A stretch of DNA of 63,566 nucleotides, counting the filler, from Reclinomonas americana ATCC 50394 (lineage: Eukaryota): assembly GCA_048213135.1 (NCBI GenBank). It is 26 parts of 26 records of this genome, joined end to end, with 100 filler letters (N's around TTAATTAATTAA, not from the genome) between each part and the next. Parts side by side here need not be neighbours in the genome. Positions count along the whole stretch, not along the records: positions 58,175 to 59,954 come from AFZH01022209.1; 25 more parts are not named here. The stretch is one strand, 5' to 3'. Positions 51,987 through 63,566 of this stretch are shown one piece after another (positions within the stretch are counted from its first letter, which is position 1; each line of letters starts with the position of its first letter). The translations under genes and the position numbers were made by a program. The notes beneath the pieces are model-generated. The model saw nothing but the letters and a program-made list of their open reading frames with translations, had not been told where the DNA came from and made no database searches.

Positions 51987-52631
51987 TCAGGCCTCGTCAT
52001 AGGCCGAGTCGAAGAAAGCCTTCTCCAGCGCCACCGTGCGCAGGAAGAAGTCGCGGCTCGTTTCCGCTTCGCCTGGGCCGACGCGGTCGAGCTCGCTGCG
52101 CAGGAAGCCGACGAAATCGCGGAAGTCGGAATTGTCGTGCAGGGTGACCCATTCGGCGTGGATGAAGTTCGCCGGCAGCGGCTGCGAGGCCTGCTGCGCC
52201 CAGTCGAGATAGAGCCATTCGGCCACGACCAGCACGGAGAGGGCGGCGGCATAGGAGCGCGTCGCGGCGGCCTCGCGCATGATCGCCTTGAAGCCGGCGG
52301 TGGCTTGGCTGTCGGGCGGCGCCGTCCGATCCTGCTCGCTGACGCCGAGCGCCTCGAAGGACCGCAGGAAATAGGTGTTCTCCTCGCCGCTGACCATGCC
52401 GATGAAGCGACCGAAGCGGATGCGGGCCTCGAAGCTGTCTGCACTGGCGAGCGCGCCGCCGAGCAGGGTCAGGAAGCTGTCGATGAAGCGATGATCCTGG
52501 ACGAGGTAGCGGACCATGACCGCGTCGGACACCGATCCGTCGAGCAATTCGCGGACGAAGCGGTGGCCGACGGACTGCGACCAGGCCGGCTGGCTGGCCT
52601 GGCGGAGAATCTCGGTGAAACGTTCGGTCAT
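51987..52631 (-). CDS. tenA: TenA/thiaminase II family protein
   Basis: HRFVREL, YLVQDHRF, AEWLYLDWA, EWVTLH, LEKAFF. Confidence 0.92.
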   Translation of the reverse strand: MTERFTEILRQASQPAWSQSVGHRFVRELLDGSVSDAVMVRYLVQDHRFIDSFLTLLGGALASADSFEARIRFGRFIGMVSGEENTYFLRSFEALGVSEQDRTAPPDSQATAGFKAIMREAAATRSYAAALSVLVVAEWLYLDWAQQASQPLPANFIHAEWVTLHDNSDFRDFVGFLRSELDRVGPGEAETSRDFFLRTVALEKAFFDSAYDEA

Positions 52632-52689: not shown

Positions 52690-53667
52690 CTATTTCAGCC
52701 GCGCTGCGACGATCTTGGCGAGCTTGCCGACGCGCGCCTTGGCTTGATCGTGGAGGGCCTGGTCGCGCTCGCCGCCCGAGACTCGGACTTCGACCGTTGT
52801 CAGGCCCTGGCGGATATGGATGCGGTTCATGATGTCGAGCGCCGCCTCGTCGCCGAGGTCTGCGACCGGCGTCCTGGCTTCCGAGACCTTGATCGCGCTC
52901 TGGAACCAGCGCTTCGACAGCTCTTCGGTGGCCGCGACGTTGCGCACGCTGACATGGATCTGGTTCAGCTCGACTGTGCGCTTGCCGTCCTTCTCGACGG
53001 TGCGCTTGGCGTCGAACTGGCAGCCTATCGGGTTCGGCAGCGCCTCCTGCCGGTTTTCGCGGCTCTCATGGGTGATCTTGCCCATCAGCTTGCGGGGGTC
53101 GCTGATGGTCATGCCAGGGAAGGTGGCCTTGACCTCCTCCGGCGTCAGCAGGGCACAGGCGTCCGGCCACTGATCGGCCGGGGCGACCGAGGAGGGGCGG
53201 GTGTCGGCCGATACGGTCACGGCGCTGTTGGCAGCGACCTGCTGGGGCGCGTCCACCATGCCGGTGCCGCCCTGCCAGCGCGCCGCTGCCTGTTTCGCCA
53301 GAGCGAGCGCGTTCGGTGCGGTCTGCTCGGAGTAGAGGTCGAGCGAGACGGCATAGATCAGGTCGTCCTTGCGGGCGCGGACCACCACGCTGGAGGAGCT
53401 GGTCTCCTGAAAGGCCTCGTCGCCGACGCCGCTGACCGGTTCGAGCTTGAGCGTGATCTTGGGATCGGCGGTGAGTTTCTCTCGCGAGGCCTTGATCGAG
53501 GCGAAGGCCTGCGCCGGGGTCTCGCGGCCCTTGGCGACGCCATCCCAGCGGATCACCGTGAGCGAGGCGAAGCGCGCGAATTCGAGCTTCGAGGTCGGGC
53601 TCGGCAGCTTCACCGAATACATGCAGCTCTCGGCATATTGCGGGCCGCGATGGATCGCGCTCAGTGT
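52690..53667 (-). CDS. Hypothetical protein with two similar domains, 5'-truncated
   Basis: DACALLT...C and PVSGVGDEA / PVADLGDEA duplicated motifs (DUF3558-like). Confidence 0.65.
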   Translation of the reverse strand, partial: TLSAIHRGPQYAESCMYSVKLPSPTSKLEFARFASLTVIRWDGVAKGRETPAQAFASIKASREKLTADPKITLKLEPVSGVGDEAFQETSSSSVVVRARKDDLIYAVSLDLYSEQTAPNALALAKQAAARWQGGTGMVDAPQQVAANSAVTVSADTRPSSVAPADQWPDACALLTPEEVKATFPGMTISDPRKLMGKITHESRENRQEALPNPIGCQFDAKRTVEKDGKRTVELNQIHVSVRNVAATEELSKRWFQSAIKVSEARTPVADLGDEAALDIMNRIHIRQGLTTVEVRVSGGERDQALHDQAKARVGKLAKIVAARLK

Positions 53668-56983: not shown

Positions 56984-57985
56984 TCAGCGCCGGACCAGCC
57001 CGACACGGCGGTTGCGCGCGCGGCCCGCTTCGTCGGCATTCGACGCGACCGGCTGCTCCAGCCCCTTGCCGAGTGCGTTGAGCCGGCTGCGATCGATGCC
57101 GTAGCGGGTCGACAGCTCGGCGACGACCGAGAAGGCGCGCATGTCGGAGAGCTTGAGGTTGTAGGCGGCGCTGCCCTGGTTGTCGGTGTGTCCGACGACA
57201 TCGAGCCGCAGGGCCGGGCTCCTGCTCAGCAGTTCGGCAATCGCCTTGAGCTGGGGCTGCGATTCCGGCTTGATGTCGGCCTTGTCGTAGTCGAACAGGA
57301 TGCCATAGACGTTGGCGCGGCCGTTCTGGTCGATCTCGCGACCGAGCTGACTCGCCTCGACCACCTGGATCTGCCCGGTCTGCATCGCGCCGGCCTCGAT
57401 GACGCGCGCAATGACCGTCCGGCCTCGGCTCTCGTCCTCGGAGAAGGCGAGGCTGACATGGACCGTGCCGCCCGGCCGGTTCAGCCTTGCATAGAGATAG
57501 CGGCCGGTGCCGTTGCCGAAGAAATTGCGGACGAAATCGCCGAGCTGCAGCTTCGGCAGGTCGGTGGTTCCGTCGAGCGCCAGGCCGAGGAACAGGCCGG
57601 GATATTTGCGTCCGTCGCTGAAGCAGCTTCCCGCCTCGGTCGAGCAAACGAAGGGCACCTCGAAGCCGGCACCCGTCAGGCTCGCCTGGTAGTTGCGCAG
57701 CGCCTCGAGGCCGGTGCGGCCAGGCGGCAGCTTGTAGTAGAGCGTGAAGACCTTGCCTTCGACCGTCTGCCAGCCGGCGCCGCTCTGCTCGCGCGAGCTG
57801 CGCTCGTCGATCGGGCCGATGATGATCCGGGCCTCGTCGAAGGCAGCCTCCTTGAAGCCGACCTGCTGCGCACCCTGGAACCGGCCGAGGAGGGGATGAT
57901 CCTGGGCCAGGCCCGGCATCGCGAGATGGCAGGCCAGCATCAGCGCCAGCCAGAACAGGGTCTTGCTTTCATGACGCATGCCCAT
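56984..57985 (-). CDS. OmpA-family peptidoglycan-binding protein (DUF4892-like N-terminus)
   Basis: Signal peptide, DHPLLGRF, ILFDYDK, VGHTDNQG, NLKLS, GRARNRRV. Confidence 0.92.
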   Translation of the reverse strand: MGMRHESKTLFWLALMLACHLAMPGLAQDHPLLGRFQGAQQVGFKEAAFDEARIIIGPIDERSSREQSGAGWQTVEGKVFTLYYKLPPGRTGLEALRNYQASLTGAGFEVPFVCSTEAGSCFSDGRKYPGLFLGLALDGTTDLPKLQLGDFVRNFFGNGTGRYLYARLNRPGGTVHVSLAFSEDESRGRTVIARVIEAGAMQTGQIQVVEASQLGREIDQNGRANVYGILFDYDKADIKPESQPQLKAIAELLSRSPALRLDVVGHTDNQGSAAYNLKLSDMRAFSVVAELSTRYGIDRSRLNALGKGLEQPVASNADEAGRARNRRVGLVRR

Positions 57986-58345
57986 GCTGAAAGGGATCGG
58001 CAGGCGACGCCGAGCGGTGGGCGTCGACATCCGATCCTGGCGGGAATGCCGGCGGCCTCGCGTCCTCCATTCGANNNNNNNNNNNNNNNNNNNNNNNNNN
58101 NNNNNNNNNNNNNNNNNNTTAATTAATTAANNNNNNNNNNNNNNNNNNNNNNNNNNNNNNNNNNNNNNNNNNNNCTGAGGGGGCCGAACAGGTCAGGGCG
58201 AGCGAGAGGCTCTCAGACCTCCACAAGGTATCTATCGACCGGCTGCTCGCCGCCTGACCTTCGGGCGGCGTTGCCGTATGGTCGTCCTGATGGCGCTGCG
58301 GTGGAGGGCTCCGATGCATCCATGCCAAGGATCGGATGGCGAGCC

Positions 58346-59290
58346 ATGAGTGCCCGCCGCCCAGAGCTGGCGGAGCTCGATTTCGCCAATTTCGCCCGGC
58401 AGTTCGATCGCTGCCTGCGGCAGGACAGGGTGATCGCCTTCTCGCGCTGGCGCGACATTGTCGAAGCGGTTCCGCCTGGCCTGCAGGATTTCTTCTGGCG
58501 CGTCGTCGAGGCCCATCTCAGCCCGGCCGCCGAGACGCGGCTGCGGGGCCTGCGCGACTGGCGCGACTTCCATGGCGAGATCCTCGATACCCGCTTCCGC
58601 CGGCCTTCCGCCGATCGTCCGCAATTCCGCACGCCGAAGCAGGCCTTCGATTCCTATTCGGCGATCTTCTGGCGTTTCGGCTCGACCGATGCGCGCTTCG
58701 ACCAGAGATTCGGCCGCCTCGTCCTGCTGGCGTTGCGCAAGGAAAGCAGCACGATCGCCAATCGCGGCAAGGGCTCCTATGACGACCTCGTCGTGGTGAT
58801 GCGACGGACCGGGCGTTTCCGCGAGCTCACCACCTTCCCGATCTGCACCGAGCCGGGCGCCCAGTACTCGCAGCGCGCCAGCGGTGGTGATGCGCGCTAC
58901 AAGGGCGTCGCGTTCAAGAAGGCCGACGGCGTCGACATCAACAAGGATGGCATCAAGGATGCCGGCCGCCTGACCGAGGGCACCTACCAGTATTTCGAGA
59001 AGAAGGGCGGCTTCCTCGGAGATCGCGCCTTCCAGGTGAAGACGACGCAGGTCGCCGAGCGCGATACCGACGGCGACGGACGCTTCACCCAGGACGACAA
59101 GAGCCGGATCGATCCGTCAGGGGCGGGGACAAGCATGTATATCCACCGCGGCGGGGCGGACAATGTCCTGGAGCCCAACACCTGGTCGGCCGGCTGCCAG
59201 ACCATCCCGAAGAACCGCTATCCGACCTTCCTCAAGGCGGTCGGGACCCCCAATGCGTTCTATTATGTGCTGGTCAATGCCGCTTCGTGA
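58346..59290 (+). CDS. Hypothetical protein with L,D-transpeptidase-like catalytic motif; start uncertain
   Basis: GRLTEGTY, MYIHRGG-x10-SAGCQT; two DxDxDG-type loops; no signal peptide. Confidence 0.7.
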   Translation: MSARRPELAELDFANFARQFDRCLRQDRVIAFSRWRDIVEAVPPGLQDFFWRVVEAHLSPAAETRLRGLRDWRDFHGEILDTRFRRPSADRPQFRTPKQAFDSYSAIFWRFGSTDARFDQRFGRLVLLALRKESSTIANRGKGSYDDLVVVMRRTGRFRELTTFPICTEPGAQYSQRASGGDARYKGVAFKKADGVDINKDGIKDAGRLTEGTYQYFEKKGGFLGDRAFQVKTTQVAERDTDGDGRFTQDDKSRIDPSGAGTSMYIHRGGADNVLEPNTWSAGCQTIPKNRYPTFLKAVGTPNAFYYVLVNAAS

Positions 59291-59954
59291 CGCCTATGCC
59301 GCGGCCGGCCTGATCGCCGCCCTGTTGCTGGCAGCTCCCGCCGTGCGGGCGCAGTCGGAGAGTGTCGCGCCCGCACCGGCCGGACAGGTCGCCTGTTCCT
59401 TCGGCGCCTTCGTCAGCGAGACCGACCCGGAGGGGCTCAATGTCCGCGCCGGCCCGGGCACCAATCACAAGGTGCTTGGCACCTTGCCGCCGGTGAAGCT
59501 CAGCGGCGATGATCCGCCCGTGCGCGCCATGGTCGAGGTCGAGGTTTCGGCCGGTGCCAATGGCTGGTTCAGGATCGCCAAGGCGCGCGACAACGAGATG
59601 CTGACCGATGCCGCGCCACGGCCGATGTTCAAGGGCTCGGGCTGGGTCAGCGGGCGCAAGCTGACGGTGAAGTCGCAGGCGTCCGCAGGCCGGCAGCGCC
59701 CCGACGCCAAGGCGCCGGCTATCCTCTCCGGTCAGGACGGGGCGAGCTTCGACGGCGACGCCTTCGTCCAGAACGGCCACGTCCTCGGCTGCAGCGGCAA
59801 ATGGGTGCTGGTCGAGTACGGCCTGCCGGCGGATAGCGAAGTGCTGACCGGGCTCACCATCGCTCCGGCCGCCAAGGCGGGGGCCGAAGCCGGCCGCTTC
59901 CGCGCCTGGGTCGACCGCATCTGCGCGACGCAGGAGACGAGCTGCGACGGGGGG
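59277..59954 (+). CDS. Secreted SH3b-like domain protein, stop not reached
   Basis: Signal peptide ending AVRA; GLNVRAGPGT, GWFRI, GWVS; second repeat CSGKWV...AWV. Confidence 0.8.
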
Positions 59955-60059
59955 NNNNNNNNNNNNNNNNNNNNNNNNNNNNNNNNNNNNNNNNNNNNTT
60001 AATTAATTAANNNNNNNNNNNNNNNNNNNNNNNNNNNNNNNNNNNNNNNNNNNNAGTAG

Positions 60060-60204
<145 letters not shown>

Positions 60205-60253
60205 GTCGAATGTCGCTGCTGTGTGTGTGTCTCACCGCGAGTGATCGACACAG

Positions 60254-61291
60254 ATCATTCAGAGTCTCGCGACTGTGGTGCGATCCGTCACCGTCACCCC
60301 TGACTGCCAGCACATTGTCGGCGGATGCATGGACAAGACGATTCGAGTGTGGTCTGTGGCGAGTGGCAAGGAGGTGCGACGGCTGGCGGGACACATCAAT
60401 TCGGTGTTTTCTGTCGCCGTCACTCGAGCTCCCGATGGCCAATGCATTGTCAGTGGGGGTCGAGACAACACAGTGCGGGTGTGGTCGCTGTCGAGTGGAG
60501 AAGAAATGCGACGGCTGGAGGGACACACCAGCACGGTGTACTCTGTCGCCGTCACCCCTGATGGTCAGCACATTATCAGTGGGAGCTGGGACTGCACAAT
60601 ACGAGTGTGGTCTCTGGCGAGTGGGGAGGAGGTGCGACGGCTGGAGGGACACACCGACATGGTGTGGGCAGTCGCCGTCACTCCTGATGGTCAACACATT
60701 GTCAGTGGCGGTGGAGACAACACAGTGCGAGTGTGGTCTCTGGCGAGCGGCGAAGAGGTGCGACGGTTGGAGGGACACACTGACTGGGTGATGTCAGTCG
60801 CTGTCACACCTGATGGTCAGCATATCGTCAGTGGGTGCGACGACCGCGCCGTGCGAGTGTGGTCGCTGGCGAGCGGGGAGGAAGTGCGACGGTTGGAGGG
60901 ACACACTGGAAGGGTGCGCGCCGTCGCTGTTACTCCCGACCGTGAGCATGTCGTGAGTGCGGGTGGGGACAGCACCATTCGGGTGTGGTCTCTGGCGAGT
61001 GGCGAGGAAGTGCGACGGCTGGAGGGACACACTTCATGGGTATCGTCTGTGGCCGTCTCTTCCGATGGTCTCCACATTGTGAGTGCGGGTGGCTACGACA
61101 AGACCGTGCGAGTGTGGTCCACGCCGCGTGGCCTTGCTCGCCTTGAACTCGACGCCACGCGCTCGGCCATGCAAGCTGTGCAGGAGATGCAGGAGGACGA
61201 GGAGGAAGTAGATTCACGATGCCTTCCCGAGCGGTTCTGCGCTGTTTCATTGTCGAGGATGCCGAGGTCGTCCTTTTCCGGTGCTGAGGAG
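60254..61291 (+). CDS. Exon encoding seven highly similar WD40 repeats (HET-E/HNWD-like)
   Basis: cacag acceptor; ~126-bp units RRLEGHTxxVxxVAVTPDGQHIVSGxxDxTVRVWSLASGEEV; gtgagt donor at 61292. Confidence 0.88.
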
Positions 61292-63277
61292 GTGAGTTGG
61301 AGAGAGGGAAGGTGGCTGCTGGTGATTGTGAGTTGTTTTTCGTGTCTTGCGAGGAAGAGTGGGTGATCATGCAAGGATCAGATTGAAGAAGAGAGGATGA
61401 CAGACGAGAGGAGAGAAGTCGACGTGGATGATGCAGAATTGTTCTCCGTGTTTGTTTCGCTGTCATGTGAATGTGAGTGTGCTGGCGTGAAGCGTGTCTC
61501 CCTCTGTATGCGTGTCTCATTCTCACCTCGTCTAGTGTATGCAAGCGCGATGAAGCACTTGGGTGTCTGTTTTGTCTTTCTGTCTCGTTGTGATGTCTGT
61601 TGTGCGTGCATCTTTCGTCGCCCATGAATGTGCCTCAGGAGAGCGAGTCGCCGTTGTCTATTTCCTCGCGTCTTCTTTTGCGCACCACTTTAGCATCACT
61701 GCTCTGCTTCCCATTGTGCCTGTGCGCCGTGGGCATTCTCCTTCCGACTCTGAAGAATGCATGTCTTGCAGCTCTCTCTCTCTATCTCTCTGTCCCTTAC
61801 AGAGTCTCTCTCTTTCCCCACCGTCTCCCTGCCGTGCGCGCTCATTTGCCTCCCCAGTCATCCACCCCATCCCTCCCGCACTCGCTCAAGGCCGAGCATG
61901 CTTCCCTACTCATGATGCACCGACTGCCATGCTGCCAGTTCATCATGGTGAGCTTCCCGATGCCGAAGTGTGTGAGATGGCCTGACTGCATGCTGATTCT
62001 TCTCTCTCTCCTTTGCAGGATGGGTGTGTGTACAGAAGCATCCCTTGGCTTGCCTCTTGACAAAACCGCGTGTTGGTAGCAGATGCTAATCGGTGTGTTC
62101 GTCGTTGAGACAGAGCAGATATCTCTCTCCTTCCTCCATTCTTCGCTCACATGCAGGCACCTTAGGGGCAGGTCCCCCTCGTTGTTCCGTAATGATTGCA
62201 GGCGTGCTGTGCATCGCCCGCTGCCGGCTGTCACCTCACTCAGTCGGCTCCACACCTGAATCCATCCCATCATGCACGATGCAGGTGTGTGGACTTTTTC
62301 GTCGTGATCTCTCTTTCCGCTTTCCCTCCCGCTCACCTCAGTCGTGTAGGTCGTGCAGGCCATGGAGAGCGTGGCGAGGGTGGCATGCGTGCCGTGATGT
62401 GCGACATGGTGGCCTGGCCGGTGGATCGTTCAATCTCGACTGGCAAGTCGGAGCGAATCGATGATGTGCGCACCTTGGTTGTTGCTGTCACTGTCGAGTG
62501 ACGATGGTGGTGGCCATGGGTGACTGTTGGCACGTGCTTGGTCAGCAACACATGGTGCGTGCGTGTTCTGTATCTGCGTTGAGGTGTAAGTTGATGAGAC
62601 TCGGTGATCGACTGACTCAGTTCGGTGTGTGCCATGAACACAGGCGTGCTGGCAAGTGACTGGCATGCGAAGACACGTGGTGCCGTGCCTCACAGTGCCT
62701 GCATGAGACGATTCACCGACCAACTGTGAGTGTGACTGAAGGGACGAGGCATTGATTGTGATTTGGGTGGGAGGGGATGCAATTCTCACGACACAGCTGC
62801 CTCGTCCATCGCTGTGCTGCTGTGGTGGTCGCTGCTCTTCTGTTCCCTGTGACTCTCCTTCTTCGTCGTACCATCATGACGTGCACCTCGTCAGCTTCGC
62901 TATGGGCCGATCCAAGGAGGCGTGCGGTATCGATGACTCGTCGTGCTTACTCGATTCTCCGATGTGCTCTGCGGTGGCATCAGCACAATAGGGCCATAGC
63001 TGCGTATCCAAGCAGCCCGACATTCCTGTCCTCGTTGATAGAGAATGCAAGTCAGTCGAGGCTGGACATGCACAATGCAGTGCAGCGCCACCATGTGCAT
63101 GTCCATTATGCCGATTTCGCATCGATGAGTCCCGTGTCGGTCATCGAAAGCCCACACGTCGGTCACACTACCGTATGGTGTGTTGGGTGCTGGCTGCAGC
63201 ACGGCGAGCGATGGACGACGTCTCAGAGCAAGGCGGGAGAAGAAAGGCGGGAAATGGTGACAATCCGGAGCGAGCAA

Positions 63278-63316
<39 letters not shown>

Positions 63317-63566
63317 GAGAACAGACTCTTCGTGACCACCACCGCAATAGAGTGCCGACCAGGTGGTTTGCTCTCCGTAGAGCGCAAGTCAACAGACGCG
63401 AACCTGCAACGAGAGGACACGAGAGTCATTTATCCTTCCTCTTTTCCAATGACAACCAAGGTGCGCTCACACGCGCGTGTGTGACAGGGGATTCGTGTAT
63501 GTGGCTGCTGCTGCTCTCTTCCTCTCTCTGTCTCTCTCTCTCTCTCTTTGTGCCCATCTCAGTGTG

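Follow-up and report, generated by a model that had tools for sequence, protein, structure and literature searches.

The YkuD fold is known from cellular wall enzymes such as Bd1075, Pgp2, DpaA, Csd6 and the Gluconobacter 1,3-L,D-transpeptidase (1,3-LDT), which are exported housekeeping enzymes not known to have immunity genes. It is also used in bacterial warfare. In Tlde1/Tldi1 (Tae5-7; DUF2778 paired with DUF2195-type immunity), which belongs to the Salmonella SPI-6 type VI secretion system (T6SS), a His/Cys enzyme of this fold without signal peptide forms a two-gene unit with a periplasmic partner. According to the accessible text of 10.1101/2020.02.18.954545, T6SS genes are found close to 43-77% of the genes of the Tlde1 family, and orphan immunity genes are reported for Tlde1/Tldi1 in the accessible parts of the same paper and of PMC9638812. 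The polymorphic toxins of the Tox-LD-peptidase type, as described in the accessible part of PMC3482391, are L,D-peptidases with H, S and C residues, predicted wall damage and linked immunity. Here, we analysed a cassette of two genes found in a window of 63,566 nucleotides (the whole stretch of DNA that was studied) from the assembly GCA_048213135.1 of Reclinomonas americana ATCC 50394. The first gene encodes P0001, a Cys/His enzyme, and the second encodes P0002, an SH3b protein. Our results suggest that the cassette is probably an antibacterial wall-targeting effector with its Sec-exported SH3b antidote, and that it represents a probable new effector/immunity family.

If true, this would be a second independent YkuD-fold lineage in bacterial warfare besides Tlde1, with an SH3b immunity fold. 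It would also give a testable function to a domain that matches no Pfam family and occurs in about 300 clusters (50% identity), including XVIPCD proteins and a crAssphage gene. A wall-targeting effector with periplasmic immunity is a well-known principle, which limits the surprise. The initial annotation had already inferred an effector/immunity pair from the window, and this is partly supported by the fold, the conserved His and Cys, the linkage, the immunity-like dynamics of the SH3 gene and the domain fusions. The fold class, the dyad conservation, the contrast in leaders, the linkage, the asymmetric loss and duplication, and the co-occurrence with T6SS were all computed.

The cassette lies on one contig of the window (G000:C6742), flanked there by linker-joined contigs. 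The DNA of this contig is 96.8% identical to a Bosea vestrisii record (L001), and P0001 is 100% identical to the B. vestrisii protein. The source assembly is mixed, with 108 Mb in 16,441 contigs. Judged from its sequence, the contig is bacterial (Bosea) DNA within this mixed assembly, and therefore the gene context was taken from relatives.

We investigated the linkage of the two genes across genomes. The SH3 gene was directly downstream of the enzyme gene in 15/15 enzyme-seeded loci, Nevskia included, and an enzyme without the SH3 gene was never met among them. The enzyme was found in 26 of 111 Bosea genomes, and the SH3 gene was next to it in all 26 carriers, which overlap the 15 enzyme-seeded loci. 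For a second genus (that of G535), the SH3 gene followed directly after 18/18 near-full enzyme copies, in 15/29 genomes. Thus, the pairing that the initial annotation saw on a single contig recurs in other genomes. As in effector/immunity pairs, the partner is adjacent, is on the same strand and carries a leader for the compartment of action. The pairwise identities of P0001 and P0002 were also correlated (Spearman 0.77, 72 pairs), for which shared descent alone would suffice.

The two genes were lost and duplicated asymmetrically. In the genus of G535, the SH3 profile gave 44 matches in 22/29 genomes; five genomes had the SH3 gene without an enzyme match and two had it with enzyme fragments alone, and the reverse was seen in none. 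Four of six enzyme fragments were directly upstream of an SH3 gene. In G681, internal stops break up the enzyme, and the SH3 match that follows it is uninterrupted. We then counted 79 SH3-seeded metagenome loci, a set that holds near-duplicates and distant SH3 proteins: a full enzyme was upstream in 32, a partial one or remnant in 7 and none despite room in 29, while 5 loci were cut by the contig edge and 6 had no room. Two loci with flanks 98-99% identical (L064 and L073) are one locus in two states, because a 1.07-kb block with the enzyme gene is missing from L064, where the SH3 gene remains (97.5% identical). L090 compared with L076 is a second, more diverged case of enzyme loss with the SH3 gene kept. 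Tandem SH3 paralogues are 53-68% identical. The cassette was found at many unrelated sites, and the enzyme in just 2/151 genomes of a wider family sample. Because the SH3 gene is kept alone and the enzyme never is, the pattern is immunity-like: an antidote is useful by itself and a toxin is not. The downstream SH3b gene thus appears to behave genetically like an immunity gene.

The fold of P0001 was modelled from 77 homologues (predicted local distance difference test score, pLDDT, 90.8). In a wide structural search, the first 19 rows all fell on the C-terminal domain and were entries of L,D-transpeptidase type, apart from 4xxt, for which the title gives no indication; the best match had Z 8.7, a root-mean-square deviation (rmsd) of 3.9 and 126 aligned residues. 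The cellular enzymes Bd1075, Gluconobacter 1,3-L,D-transpeptidase, Pgp2, Csd6 and DpaA were the five best Foldseek rows from the PDB. In the wide search they had Z 6.6-8.7, and they are 10-15% identical to P0001. The YkuD-like fold expected by the initial annotation was therefore recovered. Because the structural rows agree and the motif is present, the assignment of the P0001 model to the YkuD/L,D-transpeptidase fold class is safe despite the moderate Z. One homologue bears the UniRef name 'YkuD domain-containing protein', so the fold has not gone wholly unnoticed in this family.

The open reading frame (ORF), both loops (DINKDG and DTDGDG) and the H267-x13-S-A-G-C284 motif are present as the initial annotation described them. 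The motif is invariant across the 77-sequence alignment A1, and among distant representatives H267 is kept in 135/140 and C284 in 134/140. The first loop was conserved at D197 (122/140), D201 (124/140) and D205 (118/140), and the second at D240 (129/140), G245 (128/140), F247 (120/140) and D251 (101/140). The motifs are not due to chance, because H267, C284, D197 and D240 are kept in distant representatives. Weak Dockerin_1 matches were seen in 10/50 homologues, and Ca2+ binding is what we take the Dx[DN]xDG motif to mean. Among 261 proteins, the His-Cys spacing was 13 in 111 and 8 in 96. The motif of P0001, H-x13-S-A-G-C-Q, has Ala in place of the second His and so misses the canonical YkuD motif HXX14-17[S/T]HGCh, in the form quoted in the accessible text of the Tlde1 papers. 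P0001 had no Pfam match and did not reach the curated cut-off of PF03734 (YkuD), which matched 7/50 homologues weakly (best E 0.006). NCBIfam matched neither P0001 nor P0002, and PDB sequence searches gave no P0001 match.

The absence of a signal peptide from P0001 was borne out, since a crude window and pattern test found a hydrophobic leader in 1/77 enzymes and no Tat-like pattern. The helical N-terminus is present in the model; it is shorter than the ~110 aa first proposed, at about residues 9-90, because distant homologues align from about residue 95. This cap weakly resembles the N-termini of the XVIPCD-bearing clade (hhalign E 6e-4, with a score of 22 where 60 column shuffles reached 14.2 at most). 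No support emerged for the cap as a general trafficking marker on other toxin domains: all 34 matches were 234-373 aa long, 33 of them were already in the family search and the remaining one is P0383. An Atlas search with the cap gave no usable match. We rejected a TTG start further upstream (58271), since all homologues that cover the full query at 80% identity or more have 314-315 aa. A promoter scan of the cassette gave no site.

P0002 carries a leader and overlaps the enzyme gene by 14 nt, as the initial annotation had noted, and its ORF runs to the contig end. Because a TGA lies directly 3' in L001, 226 aa is the whole protein. It matched SH3_3 (E 5.8e-8), a match shared by 80/80 homologues, and DUF2195 was found in none of them. 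The SH3b-like repeats that had been proposed are reduced to one demonstrable SH3b domain (VIA Z 8.5 to 4epc, rmsd 2.3, 69 aligned), which resembles the domains that bind the wall in autolysins and endolysins. The second half is rich in beta structure, and a profile-profile test for a second repeat gave E 0.067. The SH3 fold is better known for cell-wall binding than for protecting walls. Four cysteines are present as proposed (40, 172, 216, 223), with Cys40, 172 and 216 invariant among homologues and Cys223 nearly so. By the same crude test, 71/80 homologues have a hydrophobic leader and 29/80 a lipobox-like pattern. Homologues of P0002 were found in Bosea, Lysobacter, Roseateles, Mitsuaria and Aquabacterium. 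The Lysobacter proteins P0298, P0300, P0304 and P0307 share about 66-70% identity with the Bosea protein, more than most do, and L058, a locus at this level of identity, has an orphan SH3 gene. These sequences suggest that immunity may have been captured horizontally.

The comparison with described systems separates the cassette from each of them. P0001 does not appear to be particularly close to Tlde1a, from the type that the initial annotation cited for comparison. Tlde1a ranked 19th, last of the L,D-transpeptidase run (Z 5.9, rmsd 3.2, 111 aligned), against Z 8-8.7 for others, and the nearest structural relatives are phage proteins. DUF2778 was absent from P0001 at E up to 1 and from the families listed (25 of 29) for 50 homologues. 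Unlike Tlde1 (173 aa), P0001 has 314 aa, a helical cap, two DxDxDG loops and a different motif, its partner is a downstream SH3b protein without the DUF2195 of Tldi1, and it does not lie beside T6SS genes. P0001 would thus work like Tlde1 and is, by its sequence, not a Tlde1 member. The RHS repeats and Imm16/Imm57 that the accessible part of PMC3482391 gives for Tox-LD-peptidase toxins were not seen in P0001, its partners or 113 homologues. P0001 shares its catalytic domain, loops and a weakly related cap with XVIPCD effector-like homologues of Xanthomonadales type IV secretion systems (T4SS), such as Stenotrophomonas koreensis WP_152981244.1; unlike them, it has no C-terminal XVIPCD, ends at the catalytic domain and falls in a separate clade. 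The phrog_3000 or crAssphage gp62-type proteins and the 'C82-like' DUF5675 candidate lysins are the nearest structural or profile relatives of the domain; unlike P0001, they are about 200 aa, capless and phage-borne. These lysins were proposed in a 2026 preprint, seen here in its accessible part (10.64898/2026.04.11.717860).

In the literature searched, with supplements and most subscription journals outside its scope, SH3b was not found as an immunity fold for a YkuD-type effector. The accessible texts of PMC13340143, PMC13055248 and PMC10433429 mention SH3 just in effectors, in an uncharacterised vgrG-linked protein or in the accessory protein TagV, and that of PMC11148199 has no SH3 mention. 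Searches for XVIPCD with YkuD or transpeptidase, or for a Bosea T6SS peptidoglycan effector/immunity pair, found nothing, again with most subscription journals outside scope.

To place the domain in its wider family, we ran a sequence search, which gave 300 clusters (50% identity) with E up to 1e-3. Of 126 homologues intended for a domain scan, 13 were dropped for size, and the remaining 113 contained LysM (33), phage lysozyme (14), PG_binding_1 (11), XVIPCD (8), a VgrG3-like C-terminal toxin domain (7) and SH3_3 (3). The fusions suggested for checking were therefore seen with XVIPCD, LysM and PG_binding_1, and not with structural VgrG or PAAR. A hydrophobic leader was seen in 7/140 family representatives. 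phrog_3000 matched 16/50 homologues, and the neighbours in the Atlas were 75-100% viral clusters. In the BFVD, the closest structural matches overall were uncharacterised phage proteins (E 1.8e-9 to 3e-4), one of them named Lysin, and DUF5675 entries matched weakly (E 4e-3 or worse). Because of these fusions and phage relatives, the catalytic domain appears to act on peptidoglycan and to accompany the machinery of conflict and lysis. A quick tree, built from 94 domains that were hand-picked from 228, put 19 capped P0001-type rows in one clade (Shimodaira-Hasegawa-like approximate likelihood ratio test, SH-aLRT, 100) and all 8 XVIPCD fusions in a separate 31-row clade (SH-aLRT 99).

The fused homologues are of interest in themselves. 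The eight with XVIPCD (P0156, P0162, P0196, P0206, P0225, P0229, P0238, P0243; one from Stenotrophomonas koreensis) may form a class of T4SS wall-targeting effectors, apparently uncharacterised. Searches for such homologues across the class gave 2 matches in 400 and one weak match in 300; there were 0/301 in the family of G555, and none on plasmids. Another group (P0130, P0135, P0141, P0147, P0176, P0180 and others, one from Sphingobium) joins LysM and a lysozyme-type or VgrG3-like toxin domain to the catalytic domain, mostly without leader, and could be bifunctional wall hydrolases. The hypothetical protein gp62 of crAssphage cr8_1 (L160:5073-5681, NC_055877.1) is a homologue of the catalytic domain (E 2e-11); its gene is near the terminase, with a DUF2746 gene two genes downstream. 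It is a candidate C82-like crAss lysin.

For the export route, which the initial annotation left open, a T6SS encoded at another place in the genome of this organism is a candidate. TssC was present in 26/26 Bosea carriers and 58/85 non-carriers (p 4e-4), in 15/15 carriers of the genus of G535 (27/29 genomes overall), in the Nevskia genome and in 41/151 genomes of the wider family sample. The assembly studied here has a TssC contig 99.6% identical to that of B. vestrisii, whose cluster (G001) includes TssA, B, C, E, F, G, Hcp, VgrG and a ClpV-like ATPase. This co-occurrence is confounded by kinship, genome size and completeness, and the high TssC base rate (84/111; 27/29), so delivery by T6SS is the leading guess and, given the pair, reasonably likely. 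XVIPCD was found in 0/5 carrier genomes, in a search in which no control genome gave a signal either. In the B. vestrisii cluster (L156-L157; G001:C9:55000-94999), a peptidase M23 gene lies beside the ClpV-like gene, and DUF6931 follows vgrG.

The effector/antidote reading may be explained by the following mechanism, in which toxicity, the bond cleaved, Ca2+ binding, direct inhibition and T6SS delivery are what we infer. P0001 would be made in the cytoplasm without signal peptide and then delivered to a neighbour's periplasm, most likely as cargo of a T6SS. There, the His267/Cys284 site would form an acyl-enzyme with peptidoglycan stem peptides and hydrolyse an L,D bond, which would weaken the wall, and the two DxDxDG loops would probably bind Ca2+. 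The target could be the bond of meso-diaminopimelate (mDAP) to D-Ala, trimmed from stems, or mDAP-mDAP cross-links. Stem trimming is plausible by analogy with Tlde1a and Csd6; cross-link cleavage would be equally possible, because of the lysozyme fusions and phage relatives. P0002 would be Sec-exported (some homologues perhaps as lipoproteins), probably stabilised by disulfides, and would neutralise the enzyme received from kin or rivals. We consider unlikely a bolder form of this reading, in which P0001 would belong to a clade of C82-like wall hydrolases with Ca2+ loops, as yet without a name, that spans crAss-type phage lysins, T4SS effectors and T6SS cargo and cleaves L,D cross-links (3-3 bonds, or tethers to the outer membrane) and not stems. 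P0002 would then be an SH3b wall-binding module turned immunity protein, possibly shielding stem peptides rather than plugging the enzyme, and orphans and diverged tandem copies would therefore be hoarded as broad protection.

A number of observations weigh against an effector with its antidote. Foldseek gave nothing under E 1e-3 against the PDB, and Z 8-8.7 is just moderately over the tool's background. The flanking genes scanned have unrelated metabolic and regulatory functions, and none of them is a VgrG, PAAR, Hcp, adaptor or VirB gene; no TssJ/K/L/M match was found in 40 kb around the B. vestrisii tssC; the tssC of the carrier G677 is split; and none of the 113 homologues has a structural VgrG, PAAR or Rhs fusion. 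The count of orphan SH3 genes takes in redundant loci and distant SH3 proteins possibly of other function. Within one clade of Bosea, the pair always occupies the same site, is 89-100% identical and has an ordinary GC content, which makes it steadier than typical polymorphic toxins. Finally, SH3b modules usually bind walls, and 3/113 homologues have one fused in cis to the catalytic domain. This last point would suit a split lysin, in which P0002 would be a separate subunit that binds the wall and directs the enzyme to its substrate. Its fold and the co-varying identities of the two proteins agree with that; however, the enzyme and P0002 are routed differently, a targeting subunit would be useless alone while orphans and tandem copies are common, and one orphan (L158) sits among secreted-looking genes near a weak match to the lysozyme inhibitor LprI. 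We regard a split lysin as highly improbable.

The phage affinities could instead point to a domesticated phage-type lysin, bacteriocin-like, that is freed by lysis, vesicles or another route while the SH3 protein shields kin, so that no injection machine would be needed. The BFVD matches, the viral Atlas neighbours, phrog_3000, gp62 and a pair without adjoining secretion gene are in its favour. However, no holin, spanin or prophage gene was among the flanks scanned, phage and plasmid records gave no match to P0001 itself and viral contigs just one, a distant one, and every carrier is TssC-positive. A 35-kDa enzyme outside a Gram-negative cell also requires help across the outer membrane. We consider such a lysin distinctly unlikely. 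The shape and remodelling enzymes at the top of the PDB matches, together with the single fixed site in one Bosea clade, would fit a housekeeping remodeller of the producer's own wall (like Csd6, Pgp2, Bd1075 and DpaA), with the SH3 protein as periplasmic activator or anchor. This is very improbable: without a leader, the enzyme would have no obvious way to reach the producer's wall, it is patchily distributed in Bosea and in the wider family sample, it often decays while the partner is kept or duplicated, and its sister clades carry XVIPCD.

The coordinates of the features are collected in Table 1.

Table 1. Features of the cassette contig, in window positions.
Feature	Position	Strand	Remark
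Whole contig	58175..59954	.	1,780 bp, GC (guanine plus cytosine) 0.68, Bosea DNA
P0001, putative wall-targeting effector: Cys/His enzyme with YkuD-like fold, 314 aa, without signal peptide	58346..59290	+	
N-terminal helical cap, about residues 9-90	58370..58615	+	helices in model; weak likeness to N-termini of XVIPCD-bearing homologues
Catalytic domain, residues 95-314	58628..59287	+	module common to XVIPCD, LysM and lysozyme fusions and phage proteins
DxNxDG loop 1, D197-D205 (DINKDG residues 197-202), putative Ca2+ site	58934..58960	+	conservation
DxDxDG loop 2, D240-D251 (DTDGDG residues 240-245), EF-hand-like 12-residue pattern, putative Ca2+ site	59063..59098	+	
Putative catalytic motif H267-x13-S-A-G-C284	59144..59197	+	conservation
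P0002, 226 aa, exported SH3b protein, putative periplasmic immunity protein	59277..59954	+	stop just past contig end
Predicted Sec leader of P0002; cleavage site placed by eye after AVRA	59277..59348	+	
SH3b domain of P0002, residues 34-132	59376..59672	+	structural search VIA; SH3_3
C-terminal beta domain of P0002: C172, C216, C223, conserved C-x-x-Q-E-T-x-C-D-G tail; possibly degenerate second SH3	59673..59954	+	

Two orphan SH3 genes have neighbours of their own. In L158 (3353-8591), from the Rhizobium plasmid CP041205.1, an orphan SH3 homologue lies behind two paralogous secreted-looking genes, with the weak LprI match nearby; this stretch may be a poly-immunity array. In L066 (1769-9912), an orphan SH3 gene lies beside three Uma2 nuclease copies, a HEPN/nucleotidyltransferase pair and a reverse transcriptase, a defence-island-like setting.

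The last contig of the window (60055-63566) is eukaryote-like, with WD40-type repeats and GT microsatellites. Since it stands beside the Bosea contig, the window mixes organisms. Separate neighbouring contigs, with no physical link to the cassette, encode a TenA protein (51987-52631, minus strand), a 310-aa protein without Pfam match (52690-53622, minus strand) and an OmpA-family protein with a weak DUF4892 match (56984-58030, minus strand).

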